46,101 nucleotides of DNA from Candidatus Nanoarchaeia archaeon (lineage in GTDB: Bacteria > Patescibacteriota > Microgenomatia > Woykebacterales > RBG-16-39-9b), in the NCBI GenBank assembly GCA_036514715.1, contig DATBWR010000011.1, forward strand, positions 1 to 46,101. The letters are read 5' to 3'. The position numbers and the translations under genes were made by a program. Shown piece after piece: positions 20,338 through 33,189 of the stretch. The notes beneath the pieces are model-generated. The model had not been told where the DNA came from and ran no database searches. It saw nothing but the letters and a program-made list of their open reading frames with translations. Position 1 is the stretch's first letter. Each line of letters begins with the position of its first letter.

Positions 20338-20372
20338 ATTAAAAGTTTAGCGAAAACCACCACTTTGGTCAA

Positions 20373-21635
20373 TCAGCCACCAACTAAATTTAAAAGTTGC
20401 TTGCTTCTTAAATAACGGTGGTAGCGGAGGGCAAAGCGGTGAGACTCGTCTCTAATTCTTTGAAGAAGTTGCAAAGCTGGCGAGCTTCGTTCCAAACGGA
20501 GTGGTTTTTTTTCGTTGGGTAAATATATCTCCTCCAGTTTTTTAGCTAAGCCAACTACCGGGATTTTTAAATCTAAGTCCCTCAGAACCGATAGTGCTAC
20601 TGACAGTTGTCCCTTACCTCCGTCCACAACAATTAAATTTGGGTGTTCCCAGTCATTCTTGAACCGGCGACCTAAAACCTCAGCCATCATGGCAAAATCA
20701 TTACTGGTCGAAAGAGTTTTAATTCTAAAGCGTCGGTAATCATCTTTACTTATTTGACCGCCAGTCAAAACTACCATGGATCCAGTCGCATTAGTTCCCA
20801 TAATATTGGAAATATCGTAACACTCAATCCTTAAGGGTTTTTCTTTAAGTTTAAGAACCTGCGTAAGATTCGCCAATTGCCTTTCGTAGAAACTCTCCAA
20901 AACTGCCGGTCCTTCCAAATACTTTTCAACATCCTCAACCCTCTTCGTAATGTGGGCGATAGCTTCGATTTTGGTTTTAGTTTTAGTCGCTTCTTCAAAC
21001 TCTAGATTTTTTGCTTGTAACCTCATTTCTTTTTCTAACTCGTCCACAACACCCCTTGTATCGCCGCTGAGAAATTTAATTAATTTTCTTAAAATCTTCT
21101 GATAGTCTTTTTTGGTAAGAGCTCCAACACAAACTCCAGGGCAAAGACCTAAATGAAAACCCAGACAAGCACGGGCCGAATTAGGCCGACAGCCAGTCCT
21201 AAAGCTAAAAATCCGGCGGGCAATCTTTAAAGTGGTTCTGGCGGCAGAGGCACTAGTAAAAGGGCCAAAATACTCTTTAGCGCCCGCTAAATCACGCTTA
21301 CGACCAGTGGTTACTCTAGGGTAGTCTTCCTTGGTGATAATAATGTAGAGATAATCCTTATCGTCTTTCAACTGATGGTTGAAATAGGGCTGATGCTTCT
21401 TAATGAGGTTTGCTTCTAGTAGAAGTGCCTCGATGTCAGAGTCTACTCGAATGTAATCAAGGCTAACTGCTGCCCTCACCAAGAGACGGGTTTTTGCTGA
21501 AAATACGTTTTTGGCAAAGTAGCTTCCAACTCGATCTTTTAGATTAACTGCCTTACCCACGTAGATAACTTTCCCTTTTTTCCCTTTAAATAGGTAAACT
21601 CCTGGTGAAGAAGGTAAGTTTTTTACATTTTCCAT
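20373..21635 (-). CDS. uvrC: Excinuclease ABC subunit C (short, no HhH tail)
   Basis: LPSSPGVYLF, IYVGKA, Cys cluster, RIECYDIS, VDGGKGQL, IRDESHRFA. Start reset to MENVK at 21635. Confidence 0.92.
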   Translation of the reverse strand: MENVKNLPSSPGVYLFKGKKGKVIYVGKAVNLKDRVGSYFAKNVFSAKTRLLVRAAVSLDYIRVDSDIEALLLEANLIKKHQPYFNHQLKDDKDYLYIIITKEDYPRVTTGRKRDLAGAKEYFGPFTSASAARTTLKIARRIFSFRTGCRPNSARACLGFHLGLCPGVCVGALTKKDYQKILRKLIKFLSGDTRGVVDELEKEMRLQAKNLEFEEATKTKTKIEAIAHITKRVEDVEKYLEGPAVLESFYERQLANLTQVLKLKEKPLRIECYDISNIMGTNATGSMVVLTGGQISKDDYRRFRIKTLSTSNDFAMMAEVLGRRFKNDWEHPNLIVVDGGKGQLSVALSVLRDLDLKIPVVGLAKKLEEIYLPNEKKPLRLERSSPALQLLQRIRDESHRFALRYHRYLRSKQLLNLVGG

Positions 21636-21645
21636 TTGGTATATT

Positions 21646-26150: not shown

Positions 26151-29024
26151 TTAGGATTTCAAGAGTTTTCTTGAAAGCGTTTGATAAAGGTACTGTCCGG
26201 TTGAACTTTTCCTCGAAGAAGCGACCTGATTAATGGTTCCGCTGGCAATCAAATACCCACCTTGATTTCCCCCACCCGGACCCAAGTCAATAACCCAGTC
26301 AGCTGTCTTAACAATGTCTAGGTTATGCTCGATAATTAAAACCGTATTTCCTAGCTCTACCAAACGGTGGAGAACGGAGAGAAGGTTGTCAATATCAGCA
26401 AAGTGTAAACCAGTGGTGGGCTCATCAAGAATGTAAAGAGTTTTGCCAGAAGAGCGTTTGGCAAGCTCAGTTGACAATTTTATTCTTTGGGCTTCCCCAC
26501 CAGAAAGGGTCGTCGCGGCCTGCCCAAGCTTCATGTAACCCAAGCCAACTTGGTTTAGGGTGTCTATTTTAGCGGCAATTGTGGGGATTTTGTCAAAAAA
26601 ACTGCTTGCCTCTTCAACCGTCATCTCCAAAATTTCGGCGATATTCTTGCCTTTATAGTTAATTTCCAGAGCTTCTCGGTTGTAGCGCTTACCGTTGCAG
26701 GTCTCACAAGTAACATAAACGTCTGGTAAAAACTGCATTTCAATTTTTATCACTCCGTCGCCCTGACAAGTTTCACATCTACCGCCCTTAACGTTAAAGG
26801 AAAACCTACCGGCACTGTAACCCCTAAGCTTGGCTTCTGGAGTGAGAGCAAAAATTTCCCGGATATGCGTAAAAGCACCAGTATAGGTGGCTGGATTACT
26901 ACGGGGAGTACGACCGATTGGGGATTGATCAATATCAATAATTTTATCTAGATTTTCAACTCCTAAAATTGCCTCGTGTTCACCCGGCTTTTCTTTGGAA
27001 GAATAAAACTTCTGAAACAGGGCTTTTTTCAAAATATCCTCCACCAGGGTTGATTTTCCACTACCGGAAACACCAGTAACACAGACAAATTTTCCTAAAG
27101 GTATTTCAACATCAATATTCTTTAAATTGTGCTCTCTGGCGCCTTTAATAATTAGTTTCTGGCGGTTTTCCTGACGAGAAAATTTTTTCCCAATATCAAA
27201 AGCCACTTGTCTTTTTCCTGCCAAGTATTGTCCGGTTAAAGAGTTTGGGTCTCTGATAATTTGGCTTGGAGTACCACTTGCAATTACCCTTCCACCGTGT
27301 TCTCCTGCCCCTGGACCAATATCTACTAAATAGTCAGCTGCGAGCATCACCTCACGATCATGCTCAACCACTAAAACCGTGTTGCCTAAATCTCGCAAAG
27401 AAAGTAAGGTTTTGATTAACTTGTCGTTGTCTTTAGGATGCAAGCCAATCGTCGGTTCATCCAAAACGTAAAGAACTCCGGATAAACCGGAACCGATTTG
27501 AGAAGCCAGTCTTATCCTCTGGGCTTCCCCACCCGCCAAGCTAGAAGATTTACGGTTAAGTGTCAGGTAATTGAGACCAACGTCAACCAAAAAGCGCAAG
27601 CGAGAGTTGATTTCTTTCAAAACTTGCTTGGAAATGAGCTCTTCTTTACTGGTGAGTCTTAGGTTCTCAAACCACTCTAGTGCGTCTTCAACGGCAAGAC
27701 CTGCAATATCGACAATCGACTTACCGTTGATGGTAATGAACAAGGCTTCCCCCTTAATACGGGCTCCCCGACAGACCTCACAAGTTTCTTCTCGCATATA
27801 TTTCTCAATTTCACGTTTTACCCAGTCACTTTCACTTTCTCTATAACGGCGTAAAAGTTCAGGTACCAACCCTTCGAAAGTGGTGTCAAAAGAAATTGTT
27901 CGTCCAAAACGGTTACGGCCAGTGACCCGGAAAATCTCTTGATCACTTCCGTAAAGAATAATCGAGAGTACCTCTCTGGGTAGCTCAAAAATAGGATCGG
28001 AGAGTGAAAAACCTAGATGTTCTGCCAGTCCCTCCAAGCGCCGAGCTGACCAAGTGTCGTGAGAAAGCATTCTGCTCCAAGGGTGGACCGCTCCTTCGCT
28101 AATGGAGAGGTGTTTATTGGGGATAACTAAATCAGGATCCACCGTCATCTTCGTGCCTAAACCACTGCAAGCGCTACAGGCTCCTTGGGGAGAATTGAAG
28201 GAAAAAGTTCTTGGCTCAATTTCTGGTAAGGAGAGACCATGCTCCGGGCAGGCAAAGTTTTCGGAAAAAAGTCTGTCCTCTAAACCTTCTTGGGAGACGA
28301 TCAAAAGCCCTTCACCTACTCTCAAAGCAGTTTCTACTGATTCAGTTAAACGCTGTCTTTCCACCCCTGAAACTAAACGATCAATAACTACTTCAATATT
28401 ATGAATCTTGTAACGGTCGAGCTTGGGTGTTTCGCTAATTTCGTAAACGTTCCCATCCACACGTACTCTCACGAAACCTTGTTTTTGAAGATCACGAAAG
28501 ATATCTTCGTAAATACCCTTACGGGCGCGGACTACTGGCGCCAAAACCAAGACAACGTTTTCCTTATTACTTTTAACTTCTAACTTCTTACTTAGGCTTT
28601 CGATTTGGTCAACAATTTCCTGAGATGTTTGGGCTTTAATTTCCCGTCCGTCAACCGGACAGTGCGGTACACCAATTCTAGCCCAAAGTAGCCTCATATA
28701 ATCATAGATTTCCGTGATCGTTCCGACAGTAGAACGGGGGTTGCGGGAAGCGGTTTTTTGGTCAATGGAGATGGCTGGCGACAAACCCTCAATTTGGTCA
28801 ACGTCCGGCTTTTCCATTAAGCCTAAGAATTGGCGAGCGTAAGCTGATAAACTCTCAACGTAACGGCGCTGGCCTTCAGCGTAAATAGTGTCAAAAGCCA
28901 GGGAGCTTTTGCCGCTACCGGAAATTCCGGTTAAAACCACCAGAGAATTTTTAGGGATTTCCAAATCAACGTTTTTGAGATTATGCTCGCGAGCGCCTCG
29001 TATGACAATTTTATCTACAACCAT
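26151..29024 (-). CDS. uvrA: Excinuclease ABC subunit A
   Basis: GAREHNLKN x2, GSGKSS/T x2, Zn fingers, LSGGEAQRIKL. Confidence 0.98.
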   Translation of the reverse strand: MVVDKIVIRGAREHNLKNVDLEIPKNSLVVLTGISGSGKSSLAFDTIYAEGQRRYVESLSAYARQFLGLMEKPDVDQIEGLSPAISIDQKTASRNPRSTVGTITEIYDYMRLLWARIGVPHCPVDGREIKAQTSQEIVDQIESLSKKLEVKSNKENVVLVLAPVVRARKGIYEDIFRDLQKQGFVRVRVDGNVYEISETPKLDRYKIHNIEVVIDRLVSGVERQRLTESVETALRVGEGLLIVSQEGLEDRLFSENFACPEHGLSLPEIEPRTFSFNSPQGACSACSGLGTKMTVDPDLVIPNKHLSISEGAVHPWSRMLSHDTWSARRLEGLAEHLGFSLSDPIFELPREVLSIILYGSDQEIFRVTGRNRFGRTISFDTTFEGLVPELLRRYRESESDWVKREIEKYMREETCEVCRGARIKGEALFITINGKSIVDIAGLAVEDALEWFENLRLTSKEELISKQVLKEINSRLRFLVDVGLNYLTLNRKSSSLAGGEAQRIRLASQIGSGLSGVLYVLDEPTIGLHPKDNDKLIKTLLSLRDLGNTVLVVEHDREVMLAADYLVDIGPGAGEHGGRVIASGTPSQIIRDPNSLTGQYLAGKRQVAFDIGKKFSRQENRQKLIIKGAREHNLKNIDVEIPLGKFVCVTGVSGSGKSTLVEDILKKALFQKFYSSKEKPGEHEAILGVENLDKIIDIDQSPIGRTPRSNPATYTGAFTHIREIFALTPEAKLRGYSAGRFSFNVKGGRCETCQGDGVIKIEMQFLPDVYVTCETCNGKRYNREALEINYKGKNIAEILEMTVEEASSFFDKIPTIAAKIDTLNQVGLGYMKLGQAATTLSGGEAQRIKLSTELAKRSSGKTLYILDEPTTGLHFADIDNLLSVLHRLVELGNTVLIIEHNLDIVKTADWVIDLGPGGGNQGGYLIASGTINQVASSRKSSTGQYLYQTLSRKLLKS

Positions 29025-29058
29025 CGGCTTTGTCCTTTGGGCAAGTTAGATCCGTAAA

Positions 29059-29087
29059 ATTTTACCCCTTTTGGCAAGTTTGTGCAA
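29059..29087 (-). promoter_or_regulatory. sigma70 promoter of uvrA
   Basis: TTGCAC-17-TAAAAT on the minus strand. Confidence 0.7.
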
Positions 29088-29111
29088 GACTAGGGAGCTG
29101 TTAACACGGAA

Positions 29112-29140
29112 TTGACTTACAGTCGAAAAAGTTATAAGAT
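29112..29140 (+). promoter_or_regulatory. sigma70 promoter driving the non-coding element
   Basis: TTGACT-17-TAAGAT with no + strand ORF downstream. Confidence 0.7.
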
Positions 29141-29146
29141 CTGCCT

Positions 29147-29806
29147 GTTGATTGGAGTAGAGTGGATGTGTTTTCAAGACTGGTAGGGTTTGAGGGTTTC
29201 CTCCATGGGTAAGTTGAAAAAACTTGGCTATGGTTAATACCCTCACTAACTTTGGTTACGTTCCTAGGAGGCGGGGCCTAGGGGCTAACATCTAGAGCGG
29301 CTCGCACCCTCGTGGTCGCTTGGGTCGCTCTACGATAAACTAACAGACGTGTGGCCTTTCGCAGTCAAGGCCCGTCTGTTTTTCGAGGGAGAGGTTGACC
29401 GACCGACGGATCCTAGACTCTGATGTCTAGTCCAGTTCTCGTAAACCCCGAGCGAGACTGGGGCCTCTCCCTAAACAAGGTGAAAACGGACTGGCTGGGC
29501 ATTAGTCAGGACGTTTAGATCCGGCAAGGGCCGTTGTCTTGCTCTCGAGTAAGTAAACCTTAAAGGGTTCGAAGGTCTCGACCGGAGATAACTTATAGGT
29601 GGTCTGAAAGATCCGAAAGGATAAAAGGGCATTTGGCAGGTGGTTCACCCATCTTAAAACCTTGCCGTAAAAACAATTAATTCTGACTGTGTTAATGGTG
29701 CTAGCAGTCAGAATGGACCGCAGTTCCTCCTTTCGCAGGGTCCAACGTCGCCCCGAGGACCCTAATAGCTCTCTTGTTTGCACCGGCAAGAGAGCTCTTT
29801 CTTTTT
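29147..29806 (+). ncRNA. Candidate large (~660 nt) multi-helix non-coding RNA, family unidentified
   Basis: Promoter, more than 10 helices with G-U pairs on the + strand, a GAAA tetraloop, 5' end pairing with 29674-29681, and an intrinsic terminator. Confidence 0.7.
29767..29806 (+). terminator. Intrinsic terminator of the ncRNA candidate
   Basis: AGCTCTCTTGTT-loop-GGCAAGAGAGCT then CTTTCTTTTT; wobble pairs and T-run orient it +, opposite to both flanking genes. Confidence 0.8.
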
Positions 29807-29814
29807 CTCAAGAA

Positions 29815-29838
29815 ATATATGAATGATTATTCATATAT
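29815..29838 (-). terminator. AT-rich hairpin after uvrB
   Basis: ATATATGAAT-gatt-ATTCATATAT, 9 nt past the uvrB stop. Confidence 0.45.
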
Positions 29839-29847
29839 CTTTGTGGC

Positions 29848-31851
29848 TTACTTTTTGGTAACTGTTTTGGGAATTTTTACTTCGCTGCCTTTCAGCTCCA
29901 AAATCTGATCGCGAATTAAGGCCGCTCGTTCAAAATCCAAAGTATCCGCAGCCAACTTCATTTCCCTTTCCAAATCGCCGATTAAACGACGTAGTTCTGT
30001 TTTAGGAACGCGGGTTAGATCCAGCTCCTGGCTAGTCGTAGCTTGGGGCTGAATTTCAGAGAGTCTTTCCGAAATATCGTGAATGGTTTTGTTAATTGAT
30101 TGGGCGGTGATGCCGTGCTTGTTGTTATATTCAACCTGAATTTGCCGGCGGCGGTTAGTTTCGTCAATGGCTGCTTTCATTGACCCTGTAATATTGTCGG
30201 CGTACATGATCACCTTGCTACCAACTCGACGGGCAGCTCTACCGATAGTTTGGACAAGCGCGGTTTTACTGCGCAAAAACCCCTCTTTGTCCGCATCCAA
30301 AATGGCCACTAACGCTACTTCCGGCAAATCAAGTCCTTCACGCAAAAGGTTTACCCCAACTAAAACATCGTAAACCCCCCTGCGCAAATCCGCCAAAACT
30401 TCCACCCTCTCTAAAGTATCAACTTCGTGGTGAATATACATTACTTTGACTTGCCTCTCACGCAAGAACTCGGTCAAATCTTCAGCCATCCTTTTAGTCA
30501 AAGTAGTCACCAATACTCGCTCGCCTTTTTCAACCCGACTGTTAATTTCCTTAATAAGATCTGGGATTTGCCCCTCAGTTTCCCGAACTTCAACTTCTGG
30601 GTCTACAATCCCAGTGGGTCGAATAATTTGCTCCACAACAGAATCCGAGATTGAGAGCTCGTAATCAGATGGTGTCGCGCTGGTATAAATTACTTGGCGC
30701 TCTTTGCGGGCAAATTCATCAAAAGTTAAAGGTCGGTTATCGGCTGCCGAAGGCAAGCGAAAGCCGTTATCAATAAGAACAGTCTTTCGAGCGCGTTCTC
30801 CATGCCACATACCCCGCAGTTGGGGCAGGGTCATGTGGCTTTCATCAATAACCAGCAAGAAATCCTTGGGAAAATAATCTAGCAAGGTGTAAGGCGGTTC
30901 ACCGCTCTTGCGGCCATCAAAATAACGGCTGTAGTTTTCAATACCGTTGCAATAACCTAAGTTTTCAATCATCTCAAGATCATAGTTAGTTCTACTCTCC
31001 AATCTTTGAGCTTCCACCAATTTGTTTTGCTCTTTTAAGTTTTTTAGACGCTCTTTTAGATCTTTACGAATTTCTGCTAAAGGACTAGTAAGGTTTTTCT
31101 CAGGCATGACGTAATGCCGGGCTGGATAAATGTCGATTTCGGAAAGTTGCCCTTCTTTTACAAACGAACGCGGGTTCAGTTGCTCGATTTTCTCAATTTG
31201 GTCACCAAGCAAACTAATCCGCAGAGCAAAATTTTCATAGGCTGGGTAAATTTCAAAAATATCACCTTTAACCCGGAAGGTGGAGCGCTTTAACTCAAAA
31301 TCATTTCGTTCGTATTGGATCTCATTTAACGACCTAAAAAGATCATGCAAACGGACGTGTTCTCCCACTTTTAATTCAACTAAACTTCTCTGAAAAGCTA
31401 GGGGTGATCCTAAGTTATAAATACAGGAAACGCTGGCGACAATCAGCACGTCGGCTCGTGTGAGGAGAGCTTTGGTGGCTGCTAGACGCAGGCGGTCAAT
31501 TTCTTCGTTGATAGCTGCATCTTTTTCAATGTAAAGATCAATTTGGGGGACGTAGGCTTCCGGCTGGTAATAGTCGTAGTAGGAAACAAAATACTCGACT
31601 GCGTTTTTGGGGAAAAACTCTCGGTATTCGCTGGCTAGTTGGGCTGCTAGGGTTTTGTTGTGGGCAATTACCAGAGTTGGTTTATTAATTTGTGAAACAA
31701 CATTAGCCACGGTGAAAGTTTTGCCAGTACCGGTCGCGCCCAGCAATGTTTGGTGTTTATCACCTTTTTTTAAACCTTGTACCAACTTCTCAATCGCCTG
31801 TGGTTGATCTCCGGTTGGTTGGAAAGGGAAAGCTAGTTCAAACTTGTCCAT
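29848..31851 (-). CDS. uvrB: Excinuclease ABC subunit B
   Basis: PTGDQPQAI, GATGTGKT, YYDYYQPEAY, DESH, NLLREGLD, C-terminal UVR. Start MDKFEL at 31851. Confidence 0.98.
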   Translation of the reverse strand: MDKFELAFPFQPTGDQPQAIEKLVQGLKKGDKHQTLLGATGTGKTFTVANVVSQINKPTLVIAHNKTLAAQLASEYREFFPKNAVEYFVSYYDYYQPEAYVPQIDLYIEKDAAINEEIDRLRLAATKALLTRADVLIVASVSCIYNLGSPLAFQRSLVELKVGEHVRLHDLFRSLNEIQYERNDFELKRSTFRVKGDIFEIYPAYENFALRISLLGDQIEKIEQLNPRSFVKEGQLSEIDIYPARHYVMPEKNLTSPLAEIRKDLKERLKNLKEQNKLVEAQRLESRTNYDLEMIENLGYCNGIENYSRYFDGRKSGEPPYTLLDYFPKDFLLVIDESHMTLPQLRGMWHGERARKTVLIDNGFRLPSAADNRPLTFDEFARKERQVIYTSATPSDYELSISDSVVEQIIRPTGIVDPEVEVRETEGQIPDLIKEINSRVEKGERVLVTTLTKRMAEDLTEFLRERQVKVMYIHHEVDTLERVEVLADLRRGVYDVLVGVNLLREGLDLPEVALVAILDADKEGFLRSKTALVQTIGRAARRVGSKVIMYADNITGSMKAAIDETNRRRQIQVEYNNKHGITAQSINKTIHDISERLSEIQPQATTSQELDLTRVPKTELRRLIGDLEREMKLAADTLDFERAALIRDQILELKGSEVKIPKTVTKK

Positions 31852-31861
31852 CGAAAAGTGT

Positions 31862-31890
31862 ATTTTAACCCAAGCGCTACCCTCTGTCAT
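31862..31890 (-). promoter_or_regulatory. sigma70 promoter of uvrB
   Basis: ATGACA-17-TAAAAT, 10 nt before ATG. Confidence 0.7.
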
Positions 31891-31892
31891 CT

Positions 31893-32164
31893 GCTGACTA
31901 GTGGATTGTTAGTCTGAGACAATTTCTACGATCGTAGATTCTGTCTCACTGGTTAGCTCTGCAAAGTTTTGGAGAAAGAAATCCGCAGCCAGAGCAGTGT
32001 AACTGGATGTTACAAAGTTCTAACTGCGGATGCGTCGGAAAGATGGCAGGAGAGGATGTGAGTTCCCCAACACATCAATTCACAACTTACGCTGTGTTTC
32101 TCTCCTGCCCTTGCTCACTCAAGTGGTAGGACCCGCATCAAACCACTTGAGGTATTGCTTTTTT
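31893..32164 (+). ncRNA. Candidate structured RNA (four consecutive stem domains)
   Basis: GCTGACTAGTG/CACTGGTTAGC, TGAGACA/TGTCTCA, ATCCGCAG/CTGCGGAT, GGCAGGAGAG/CTCTCCTGCC, CTCAAGTGGT/ACCACTTGAG then T6. G-U pairs favour +; no clear promoter. Confidence 0.5.
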
Positions 32165-32176
32165 AGGGGAGGATTT

Positions 32177-32443
32177 AACAGTTGCCCACTCGTAGCCAAA
32201 CAACCGTGATCCGGGCCGCCTGTGCGTCCCGAACCACACTCCGCCAGTCTCTCGCAAGCAGGGAGCGCGCAGGCCTGCTTACGGTTTACCCACTCTCTCT
32301 TAATAGGGACATCTCGACGGTGGCAAGTCGTATGGACGCATTAACTTGCCCGACTCGTACCCGGGTGTCAACGAGGAGTAGCCAGAGATACGGTCACGAC
32401 AACCGCAACGTCCGCTCTGCAAGGGGCTTCACCCAACTACCCA
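32177..32443 (-). ncRNA. Candidate ~270-nt structured RNA divergent from lexA
   Basis: Promoter TTTACA-16-TATAAT (32449-32476, minus); terminal helix GGTAGTTG/CAACTGTT; internal helices TGCGGT/ACCGTA, GGCAAGTT/GACTTGCC, AACCGT/ACGGTT. Confidence 0.6.
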
Positions 32444-32507
32444 TCATTATTATAATTAAAAAGAACATTTTGTAAAGTCTGATCATTTCTGAGTCTATAA
32501 GATCCAG

Positions 32508-32537
32508 TTGACAGAGTCTCCGAAAAAAGGCAATAAT
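32508..32537 (+). promoter_or_regulatory. sigma70 promoter of lexA
   Basis: TTGACA-18-AATAAT. Confidence 0.55.
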
Positions 32538-32568
32538 TTAACCAGAAATTCACCAAAAGGAAAACTTT

Positions 32569-33189
32569 ATGCCACCAGTAGTTTACCGCCGCCAACGCGA
32601 CTTGTTAGAATTTATTTCTCAGTACATGCAGAAAAAAGGCTACGCTCCAACCCTAGCAGAAATTTGCGATGGCATTGGTTTGCGTTCTCCGGCCACTGTT
32701 CATGAGCATATCGAAAATTTAATCGAAAAAGGGATTTTAAAAAAAACCGAAGGAGCTCGCCGGGGCCTAGAAATTGTTGATCAAAAGGCTATGGGTTGGG
32801 TTCCGACTGGTGTTGAAGTACCAATTTTTGGCAAAATTGCCGCCGGCCACCCTCTTGAGGCAATTAACGACCCTACCCAAACTCTCACTATTCCGGAAGA
32901 TATGGTTGGTAACAAGCGGACCTATGTTTTACAAGTCAAGGGCGATTCAATGATTGAAGCAGCTATTTTGGATGGGGACTTTGTCTTAGTTGAGGCTACA
33001 GAAACTGCCAATAACGGCGAAATTATTGTGGCTCTTATCAACGATAATTTTGCTACGCTCAAACGTTATTTCAAAGAAACAGACCACATCCGCCTGGAAC
33101 CAGCCAACTCTTCCATGAACCCAATTATTGTGCGCGGCAATATCCAAATCCAAGGCCGCGTGACTGGGGTTATCCGTAAGTATAATTAG
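32569..33189 (+). CDS. lexA: SOS repressor LexA
   Basis: GYAPT..EI...SPATVHEH HTH; IAAG cleavage site; GDSM (Ser); TLKR (Lys). Confidence 0.96.
   Translation: MPPVVYRRQRDLLEFISQYMQKKGYAPTLAEICDGIGLRSPATVHEHIENLIEKGILKKTEGARRGLEIVDQKAMGWVPTGVEVPIFGKIAAGHPLEAINDPTQTLTIPEDMVGNKRTYVLQVKGDSMIEAAILDGDFVLVEATETANNGEIIVALINDNFATLKRYFKETDHIRLEPANSSMNPIIVRGNIQIQGRVTGVIRKYN

Follow-up and report, generated by a model that had tools for sequence, protein, structure and literature searches.

The locus considered here raises a simple question: what is encoded in the 823-nt gap that separates the repair genes uvrA and uvrB in a 46,101-nt stretch of DNA (GenBank contig DATBWR010000011.1, assembly GCA_036514715.1; hereafter the window), which is part of contig C11 of a Patescibacteriota genome of 881,917 bp (17 contigs, 96% complete)? 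A preliminary description proposed that the gap is occupied by RNA-1 (positions 29147-29806, + strand), a candidate for a large, ornate non-coding RNA (ncRNA). We found this observation to be real, in that the gap holds an unusual feature that is probably an ncRNA gene with the predicted fold. The explanation that we favor, to which we assign somewhat better than an even chance, is that RNA-1 is a genuine, self-transcribed and strongly folded ncRNA gene that belongs to a small, fast-evolving, lineage-restricted family at uvrA and acts in trans; within that explanation, the action in trans and the link to the SOS response carry the least certainty.

The transcription signals that had been claimed for RNA-1, a TTGACT-17-TAAGAT promoter and a strong terminator, were both recovered by scanning, and they define a separate + strand unit opposite to both neighbors, since uvrA and uvrB are both on the - strand. 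On that strand the minimum free energy (MFE) of RNA-1 was -262.3 kcal/mol (z = -7.35, with 0 of 20 shuffled sequences folding as well), compared with -206.2 kcal/mol (z = -3.67) for the - strand, and an independent rerun of the shuffles gave z-scores of -6.1 and -1.7, respectively; in the same genome, RNase P RNA and transfer-messenger RNA (tmRNA) scored -10.1 and -2.7. Seven overlapping 300-nt windows with starts from 29000 to 29600 all had z-scores of -2.1 to -5.5 on the + strand, the six that start inside the element (29100-29600) ranging from -2.9 to -5.5, while the - strand was mostly near the genome background (mean z = -0.64, standard deviation 1.63, 9% below -3 for 86 random 300-nt windows with 12 shuffles). 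The fold signal is therefore sustained rather than extreme in any single window. It coincides with a GC content of 0.52-0.54 within the element as against ~0.44 in the surroundings, and 28 of the 215 MFE pairs are G-U, in keeping with the + strand orientation that the preliminary description had read from the wobble pairs. Thus, a promoter, an intrinsic terminator, the lack of an open reading frame (ORF) and a one-strand fold above chance, the features of a stand-alone ncRNA gene, were found together at this site. The assembly was confirmed at both ends of the element, as contigs from other public runs span the junction from uvrA into RNA-1 (28952-29358) and that from RNA-1 into uvrB (29694-29875) with zero differences; the public runs listed for the region were 12 DNA runs and no RNA run, and in 4 of these low-depth fragments were identical to the window and yielded no variants of the element outside the uncovered interval 29368-29691.

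The helices that had been read from the letters were, with the exception of the 5' closure, all present in the MFE fold and mostly had pair probabilities >0.9. They comprise TGAGGGT/ACCCTCA, CCATGG/CTATGG, TAAGTT/AACTTG, TAGAGCGGCTC/GGGTCGCTCTA and AACAGACG/CGTCTGTT, together with GGCCTT/AAGGCC, AGGGAGAGGTT/GGCCTCTCCCT, CTGGCTG/TAGTCAG, ATCC/GGAT and ATTCTGACTG/CAGTCAGAAT. The 5' closure GTTGATTG/CAATTAAT can form, but its ensemble probability was 0.0 and forcing it costs +6.4 kcal/mol; the predicted ensemble favors a different closure, formed by 29154-29157/29727-29730 and 29162-29165/29718-29721 (GGAG/CTCC and GTGG/CCGC), with P >0.93.

Comparison of the same locus across the order (G000, the host genome, and G001-G020, the other genomes) suggests that RNA-1 is one of several such units. 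The uvrA gene was present in 20 of these 21 genomes and is adjoined by uvrB in 12 of 19 relatives, across a gap of 56-1,373 nt that mostly lacks ORFs of at least 100 aa; the ORF-free gaps of relatives measure 368-1,373 nt. An outward TTGACA-17-TAnnnT promoter, back-to-back with the uvrA promoter and 48-88 nt from the uvrA start, was seen in 9 of the 13 loci, out of 20, that were examined for it. The ORF-free units behind it range from ~240 to 1,200 nt across the family, and in several of the 11 loci examined (out of 20) the fold signal lies chiefly on the strand that does not encode uvrA, as illustrated by locus L106 (-3.0/-3.1 vs -0.2/-0.3). On that strand, 6 of 20 loci (7 units), namely G000, G016, G008, G002 (two tandem units), G005 and G001, carry a hairpin that has (G/A)CACC at its apex and is followed by a T-rich, CTTTCTTTTT-type tail. 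G009 and G003 have hairpins that resemble this terminator but carry other loops, the G009 stem being almost the same as that of the window. The terminator is the module most widely common to the family: that of RNA-1 is 82% identical to its G008 counterpart over 46 nt (E = 6e-7), and genome-wide only 3 of 220 terminator-like hairpins have the (G/A)CACC apex, one being that of RNA-1 and the other two being unrelated to RNA genes. We therefore propose, provisionally, a lineage-specific family of uvrA-divergent RNAs with an outward promoter, an ORF-free body and a (G/A)CACC-apex terminator, all three of which are present in the window.

Within the body of the element, kinship with the shorter units of the closest genera is weak but non-random. 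Among 17 relatives (two gaps <200 nt were left out), chains of collinear exact blocks of at least 9 nt added up to 43 nt between RNA-1 and G008 and to 37 nt between RNA-1 and G016, lengths that 0 of 1,000 shuffles reached in either case (P ~0.001), with 10 and 0 nt, respectively, on the reverse strand; judged by the identity of their RNase P RNAs, these two genomes and G002 stand closest to the host genome. The blocks in G008 are TTTGGTTAC, GGAGGCGGGGCC, GTTCCTCCT and TCTTTCTTTTTCT, and of the four in G016 one lies upstream of its likely promoter and may be a chance match. When the chain test was repeated with 45 pairs of units, P was <0.02 for 4 of them, with ~1 expected by chance. In the ~250- to 270-nt units of G008 and G002, the word TTTGGTT(A/G)C and the loop AGGCGGGG frame a hairpin with a stem that differs from that of the window, and a second hairpin follows between ACATC and GAT, matching the position of H3 (Table 1) in what are three poorly aligned sequences. 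RNA-1 looks like the same frame to which H1 and H4-H8 have been added. Of the longer units, that of G001 (~620 nt) has the 5' word GTTGATTGG, and that of G005 (~1.2 kb) has an internal promoter.

Table 1. Features of the uvrA-RNA-1-uvrB-lexA locus (window coordinates; helices as predicted).
Feature	Position	Strand	Remarks
uvrA	26151..29024	-	Flanking gene
uvrA promoter	29059..29086	-	-35/-10 spacer holds the word TTGCCAAAAGG; block kept across the family
RNA-1 promoter, TTGACT-17-TAAGAT, sigma-70-like	29112..29140	+	Scan, 9/12 consensus positions; back-to-back with uvrA promoter
RNA-1, putative ~660-nt non-coding transcript	29147..29806	+	Ends inferred from promoter and terminator
5' word GTTGATTGG	29147..29155	+	Same word after the outward promoter in G001; GTTGATTG in G009
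Long-range closing helix, 5' strand	29150..29165	+	Pairs with 29718-29736, P 0.94-0.99
H1 hairpin, TGAGGGT/ACCCTCA around CCATGG/CTATGG and TAAGTT/AACTTG	29184..29254	+	Fold
H2 hairpin	29255..29289	+	8-nt loop AGGCGGGG at 29269-29276; TTTGGTTAC just before
H3 hairpin, ATC-TAGAGCGGCTC ... GGGTCGCTCTA-CGAT	29290..29336	+	Fold
H4 hairpin, AACAGACG/CGTCTGTT around GGCCTT/AAGGCC	29342..29380	+	Fold
H5 multi-branch domain, closing AGGGAGAGGTT/GGCCTCTCCCT	29386..29472	+	Fold
H6 hairpin, CTGGCTG/TAGTCAG	29479..29521	+	Fold
H7 multi-branch domain, closing CGGCAAGG/CCTTGCCG, with ATCC-GAAA-GGAT inside	29522..29667	+	Fold
H8 hairpin, ATTCTGACTGT/GCAGTCAGAAT	29680..29714	+	Fold
Closing helix, 3' strand	29718..29736	+	Holds the 9-mer GTTCCTCCT, common to G008 in the same order
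Penultimate hairpin, AGGGTCC/GGACCCT	29737..29763	+	Fold
Intrinsic terminator	29767..29806	+	12-bp stem (29767-29796), GCACC apex, tail CTTTCTTTTT; scan
uvrB	29848..31890	-	Flanking gene; stop codon 41 nt past the RNA-1 end
lexA	32569..33189	+	TIGR00498, 199 bits; gives the locus an SOS context

The non-coding character of RNA-1 was borne out by every coding test applied. The + strand frames contain 13-18 stops each and are opened by neither genetic code 4 nor genetic code 25, four small ORFs, including the only sizeable one, a 95-aa ORF on the minus strand, had no Pfam match, and the 95-aa ORF had no homolog among proteins of 52-167 aa, the only lengths searched. Proteins encoded in the corresponding gaps of relatives left no trace in the element (tblastn with 12 proteins, only matches at E >=0.24). 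In 10 units, ORFs of 12-80 aa preceded by a ribosome-binding site (RBS) had a best 15-aa hydropathy window of 0.89 and none was conserved, on which grounds a type I toxin-antitoxin mRNA with a conserved small hydrophobic product was rejected.

Similarly, no known RNA family could be recognized. At the Rfam gathering score the whole window yielded 5 tRNAs only, and a cmscan search of positions 28950-29950 on both strands with the 4,227 families of Rfam 15 at E<=10 returned six chance matches to eukaryotic or unrelated families, all at E >=1.1, among which there was no OLE, ROOL, GOLLD, HEARO, raiA or intron RNA. It is nevertheless conceivable that RNA-1 is a diverged member of one of these families, or of RNase P RNA, tmRNA, signal recognition particle (SRP) RNA or 6S RNA, or that it is the mRNA of a tiny type I toxin. 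Its size and complexity are like those of the large ornate RNAs, and the idea of a hidden SRP RNA in particular arises because neither the small nor the large SRP RNA nor 6S RNA was detected in the genome. We regard such an identity as very improbable, since the Rfam matches are chance matches, RNase P RNA and tmRNA are encoded elsewhere, Ffh is absent, the element interrupts no gene and no RBS-preceded ORF has a hydrophobic window above 0.9 or is conserved. The family-by-family tests were all negative, in agreement with the preliminary description, which had noted no hallmark of RNase P, tmRNA, SRP or introns. For RNase P RNA there was no match in the region and a full-length copy on contig C6 (91.4 bits, E = 6e-29); for tmRNA there was a copy on contig C3 (111 bits), with nothing found at the locus by ARAGORN or Rfam; 6S RNA (RF00013) matched neither the genome nor the region, and the fold of RNA-1 is multi-branched; and SRP RNA (RF00169 and RF01854) matched nowhere in the genome, the region included. 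SRP RNA would not be expected here, because the genome is without an Ffh M domain and an SRP54-type GTPase. Group I and group II introns, divergent subtypes of which can escape Rfam models, were rejected on the grounds that the element is intergenic, that both flanking genes are intact and that no Rfam match was obtained.

A different possibility is that the gap has no function, being either neutral spacer or what is left of an insertion that has decayed, such as a dead gene or a piece of a phage or mobile element, with structure, promoter and terminator as by-products. The gap is indeed hypervariable in length across the order, blastn detected no similarity between the gaps of two species of one genus, no search returned a significant homolog, and 9% of random 300-nt windows of this genome fall below z = -3. 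However, the element has no terminal repeats or target duplications, is present as a single copy, has no detectable protein remnant and is without similarity to phages or plasmids (50,697 phage and 72,556 plasmid records, blastn in 'distant' mode), so that a mobile element was rejected. The structure signal spans the element window by window and is specific to one strand, relatives have the promoter and the unusual terminator at the equivalent site, and 823 nt of neutral sequence would be unlikely to persist in a 0.88-Mb genome. On this evidence we consider a neutral origin improbable.

Several results, most of them from homology searches, weigh against the explanation that we favor. The nearest UvrA relatives are metagenome-assembled genomes with an identity of at most 66%. 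BLAST found RNA-1 in 0 of 40 relatives and, within the order, in 0 of 20, where only 18- to 20-nt matches at E = 0.056 and 0.076 were obtained. The nhmmer search that the preliminary description had called for gave no significant homolog either, in 80 uvrA loci or in the 19 syntenic loci of the order. Covariance models R1 (29337-29481), R2 (29518-29672) and R3, each built from the window alone, performed no better: R1 had no match in any of 16 genomes of the family or 150 of the class, nor did R2 in any of 40 relatives (best E = 3.2), and with the filters off the best scores of R1 and R2 in the 19 syntenic loci were 13-14.5 bits (E = 0.06-0.14). The top three R1 matches lay in the gap and on the correct strand, but structured G+C-rich sequence draws such matches. 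R3 reached 11.9 bits (E = 0.5) at the G008 site and found nothing at that of G002. In contrast to RNA-1, which was found in none of them, the RNase P RNA of this genome was found by the same BLAST in 19 of the 20 relatives, with full-length matches that were 77% identical in G008 and 74% identical in both G016 and G002, so that the relatives are close enough for a homolog search and the RNA-1 body is under weak sequence constraint; by this sequence comparison, RNA-1 evolves far faster than a housekeeping RNA.

The link within the proposed family is open to further objections. It consists of short blocks and the terminator, and the T-rich tail is part of every chain; with 7-nt words, the chain statistic was no better than shuffles for all 17 relatives. 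Covariation in the formal sense is weak: the alignment of the internal module contains three poorly aligned sequences, and RNAalifold on the MAFFT alignment misplaces H2. In the terminator alignment, the rows of which were preselected as hairpins, 75% of the cells were paired and both partners differed in 5 of 10 pairs, although two of the rows were out of register. In G010, among the four closest relatives, the gap is just 84 nt and holds no unit, and in G007, G012 and G015 (loci L102, L110 and L113) the RNA slot is filled by a gene of 109-125 aa for a MarR-type winged-helix protein. As to function, no conserved palindromic operator was found upstream of uvrA (39 loci), and by a crude duplex method for pairing with RNA-1 the SOS mRNAs uvrB, lexA, uvrA and recA ranked 168, 311, 328 and 473 of 737.

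Two metagenome scans returned only chance similarities. One used the variable UvrB C-terminus and gave 237 pattern matches, none of which encodes a relative; the other used a two-block DNA pattern and gave at least 119 stretches, and among the 80 of these loci examined there was no R3 match at E<=1, no uvrA or uvrB neighbor, no combination of landmarks and no nhmmer match, as expected of chance hits.

What we consider the main rival explanation is that selection acts on transcription as such, or on the limits of the transcribed unit, and that the RNA product is irrelevant. Divergent transcription would tune the neighboring uvrA promoter, whether through competition between the promoters or through supercoiling, the convergent terminator would keep uvrB insulated from uvrA, and the body would be filler, structured just enough to withstand Rho and nucleases. 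Promoter position and terminator type are the best-conserved features, the body varies from ~240 to 1,200 nt with almost no sequence kept, a MarR-type gene can take the same slot in three relatives, and the RNase P RNA control shows the body to evolve much faster than a housekeeping RNA. Filler, however, requires neither a z-score of about -7 nor well-defined helices over 660 nt; the AGGCGGGG loop and its flanks are retained on different stems in G008 and G002, the apex of the terminator is retained while its stems change, and the gaps of 84 nt in G010 and 56 nt in G018 argue that the arrangement as such is dispensable. We therefore hold this explanation to be unlikely, if a serious competitor.

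The position of RNA-1, precisely between two co-oriented repair genes and on the opposite strand, would also suit a cis-antisense RNA directed against a uvrB-uvrA read-through transcript, the long duplex controlling uvrA expression or processing of the bicistronic message. Such read-through is conceivable, as the sole terminator candidate after the uvrB stop codon is an A+T-only, perfect 10-bp palindrome (ATATATGAAT/ATTCATATAT at 29815-29838, between the RNA-1 terminator and the uvrB stop), which may be a weak uvrB terminator. Yet uvrA has a conserved promoter of its own (Table 1), the unit spans just part of a longer gap in several relatives, loci L107, L109 and L111 have the outward promoter though uvrB is not adjacent, and perfect antisense pairing requires no internal structure. 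These points make an antisense role in cis quite improbable.

Returning to RNA-1 as a trans-acting ncRNA gene, its mode of operation can be sketched as follows. The unit occupies a fixed slot in the lexA-uvrB-uvrA cluster, delimited by the outward promoter back-to-back with the uvrA promoter and by the (G/A)CACC-apex terminator end (gene order lexA, uvrB, RNA-1, uvrA), and a discrete ~660-nt species would be transcribed from the RNA-1 promoter. RNA-1 would be an expanded form of the ~240- to 270-nt units seen in the closest relatives, which likewise have the AGGCGGGG-loop hairpin, the hairpin that follows, the terminator and a 3' strand with CCUCC. The RNA-1 and uvrA promoters are situated within ~60 nt of each other around a conserved word, so that RNA-1 is probably made together with uvrA from a joint control region of ~120 nt, plausibly under the same damage-responsive control. 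Pairing of the 5' and 3' ends and the density of helices would make the RNA stable, and its few conserved exposed elements, the GGAGG-containing loop and the apex of the terminator, would most likely allow it to bind protein or to serve as a scaffold in trans, leaving most of the body free to drift and to grow by helix insertion. A more specific version holds that a ~250-nt core (the 5'/3' closing helix, the GGAGG-loop hairpin and the terminator with its conserved apex) acquired entire helical domains as inserts until it measured ~660 nt in this genome and ~1.2 kb in that of a sister genus, much as ribosomal RNA grew by expansion segments, and that this RNA, tied into the SOS/nucleotide-excision-repair locus, is induced together with uvrA from a common operator region and serves as a scaffold or decoy for a repair or transcription protein; in all its particulars, we regard this version as doubtful.

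RNA-1 resembles several known classes of RNA and differs from each. Like OLE, ROOL and GOLLD RNAs, to which the preliminary description had compared it, RNA-1 is non-coding and several hundred nucleotides long, has many helices and multi-way junctions and is provided with a promoter and a terminator, so that the likeness holds for size and predicted complexity. It does not extend to conservation. What marks those classes is a large set of conserved nucleotides, together with strong covariation, across wide phylogenetic ranges and many genera, whereas the RNA-1 sequence is nearly unconserved even within one taxonomic family and the length of the units varies about five-fold. No significant homolog was found in 40 relatives, 150 genomes of the class or 20 of the order, short blocks were shared with one genus only, and the related units are much shorter or very different in length. 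OLE, ROOL and GOLLD RNAs were recently reported to form homo-oligomers (Nature 2025, PMC12286853).

With trans-acting small RNA genes RNA-1 has in common that it is an intergenic stand-alone unit with a sigma-70 promoter and a Rho-independent terminator, divergent from a stress gene and subject to fast turnover within a narrow range; unlike typical small RNAs, it is three to six times longer, almost fully base-paired and, by the crude duplex method, without a seed-like preference for the start regions of SOS mRNAs. RNAs of the 6S/Ms1 type bind RNA polymerase and form a rod with a central bubble, 6S RNA being ~180 nt long. They are similar to RNA-1 in that structure is kept more than sequence and in being highly folded and, by prediction, stable, but in place of a long rod with a central bubble RNA-1 is predicted to form a closed ring of hairpins and junctions, and it has no Rfam match. 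In E. coli, the SOS type I toxin loci (tisB/istR, dinQ/agrB and symE/symR) produce long folded mRNAs with paired 5' and 3' ends. RNA-1 is likewise a long folded RNA with paired ends among LexA-regulon genes, but has no conserved small hydrophobic ORF and no antisense partner that we could detect. RNA-1 is therefore best filed as a new, narrow and fast-evolving family of stand-alone structured ncRNAs, of which we know no described counterpart; the portions of the literature accessible to us contained neither a large structured RNA from Patescibacteria or Saccharibacteria nor a report of SRP loss there.

Sub-megabase genomes shed nearly everything dispensable, and thus an 823-nt gap with a promoter, a terminator and ~215 predicted pairs is unlikely to be junk. 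If transcribed, RNA-1 would be among the very few large structured RNAs of the candidate phyla radiation and would be physically tied to a DNA-damage locus, and the series of units in its relatives (~240, 270, 620, 660 and 1,200 nt) would allow the growth of a structured RNA to be studied. The case also teaches caution, in that size and predicted helices are insufficient for an OLE/ROOL/GOLLD-like label and conservation is here too weak for covariation to back the fold.

The gap on the other side of uvrB, between lexA and uvrB (31891-32568, - strand, 678 nt), is another large structured non-coding region. Its fold has an energy of -237.2 kcal/mol (z = -6.57), with 300-nt windows down to z = -9.2, and at E<=10 it matched no Rfam family. 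The structure is preceded, on the minus strand, by a promoter close to consensus (TTTACA-16-TATAAT, ~32476 to 32448), and no terminator lies between this promoter and the uvrB ATG, so that the region looks like a ~550-nt structured uvrB leader. Local alignment of RNA-1 with this region did not score above shuffles, and the two sequences are unrelated; a 56-nt piece of the latter (88%) is common to G003 only. Further gaps without an ORF of at least 100 aa are present at 20338-21645 (1,308 nt) and 2045-2886 (842 nt), but these had fold z-scores of -2.2 to +2.0 and, unlike both gaps around uvrB, gave no signal.

A recurrent word was noted in the control regions of repair genes. The uvrA promoter is conserved and its spacer word reads TTGC(C)AAAAGG across relatives. 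In gene sense, AACTTGCC(C/A)AAAGG occurs twice upstream of uvrA, at 29034-29047 and 29067-29080, one copy lying in the promoter spacer and the other at the RBS, and a near copy is found at the recA RBS (contig C6 near 14954). Exact copies number 4 genome-wide, the fourth being on contig C9 near 28046. The copy in the spacer is retained throughout the family, and the word is not palindromic; judging from these positions, it is a candidate operator or translation-control site of a damage regulon. The MarR-type protein that fills the RNA slot in three relatives (PF12802, 31 bits, for that of L113) may in turn be a uvrA regulator.

With regard to the SRP, the pathway seems to be absent from the host genome and its order. 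In the host genome, neither ffh nor an Ffh M domain nor an SRP54-type GTPase (hence no FtsY) was found. None of the 21 genomes of the order has the SRP54-type GTPase domain, which all 14 control genomes possess, and none has the small SRP RNA, which is also lacking from 100 of 101 genomes sampled from the class. The RNase P RNA gene (C6:5595-5990), at 91.4 bits, falls below the Rfam gathering score of 100 and is consequently missed by annotation at that threshold.

Other genes and repeats were encountered beside uvrA in the relatives. Four tRNA genes lie upstream of uvrA in G004 (L107), and in G005 (L108) a tRNA-Pro gene is located inside the long unit, on the same strand, with the unit ending in a family-type terminator. 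Just upstream of the terminator, the second unit of G002 (L105) contains seven tandem copies of GCGTCT and the unit of G001 (L115) four spaced CGTCT words, with which ACAGACG/CGTCTGT, carried by RNA-1 as helix H4, may be compared.

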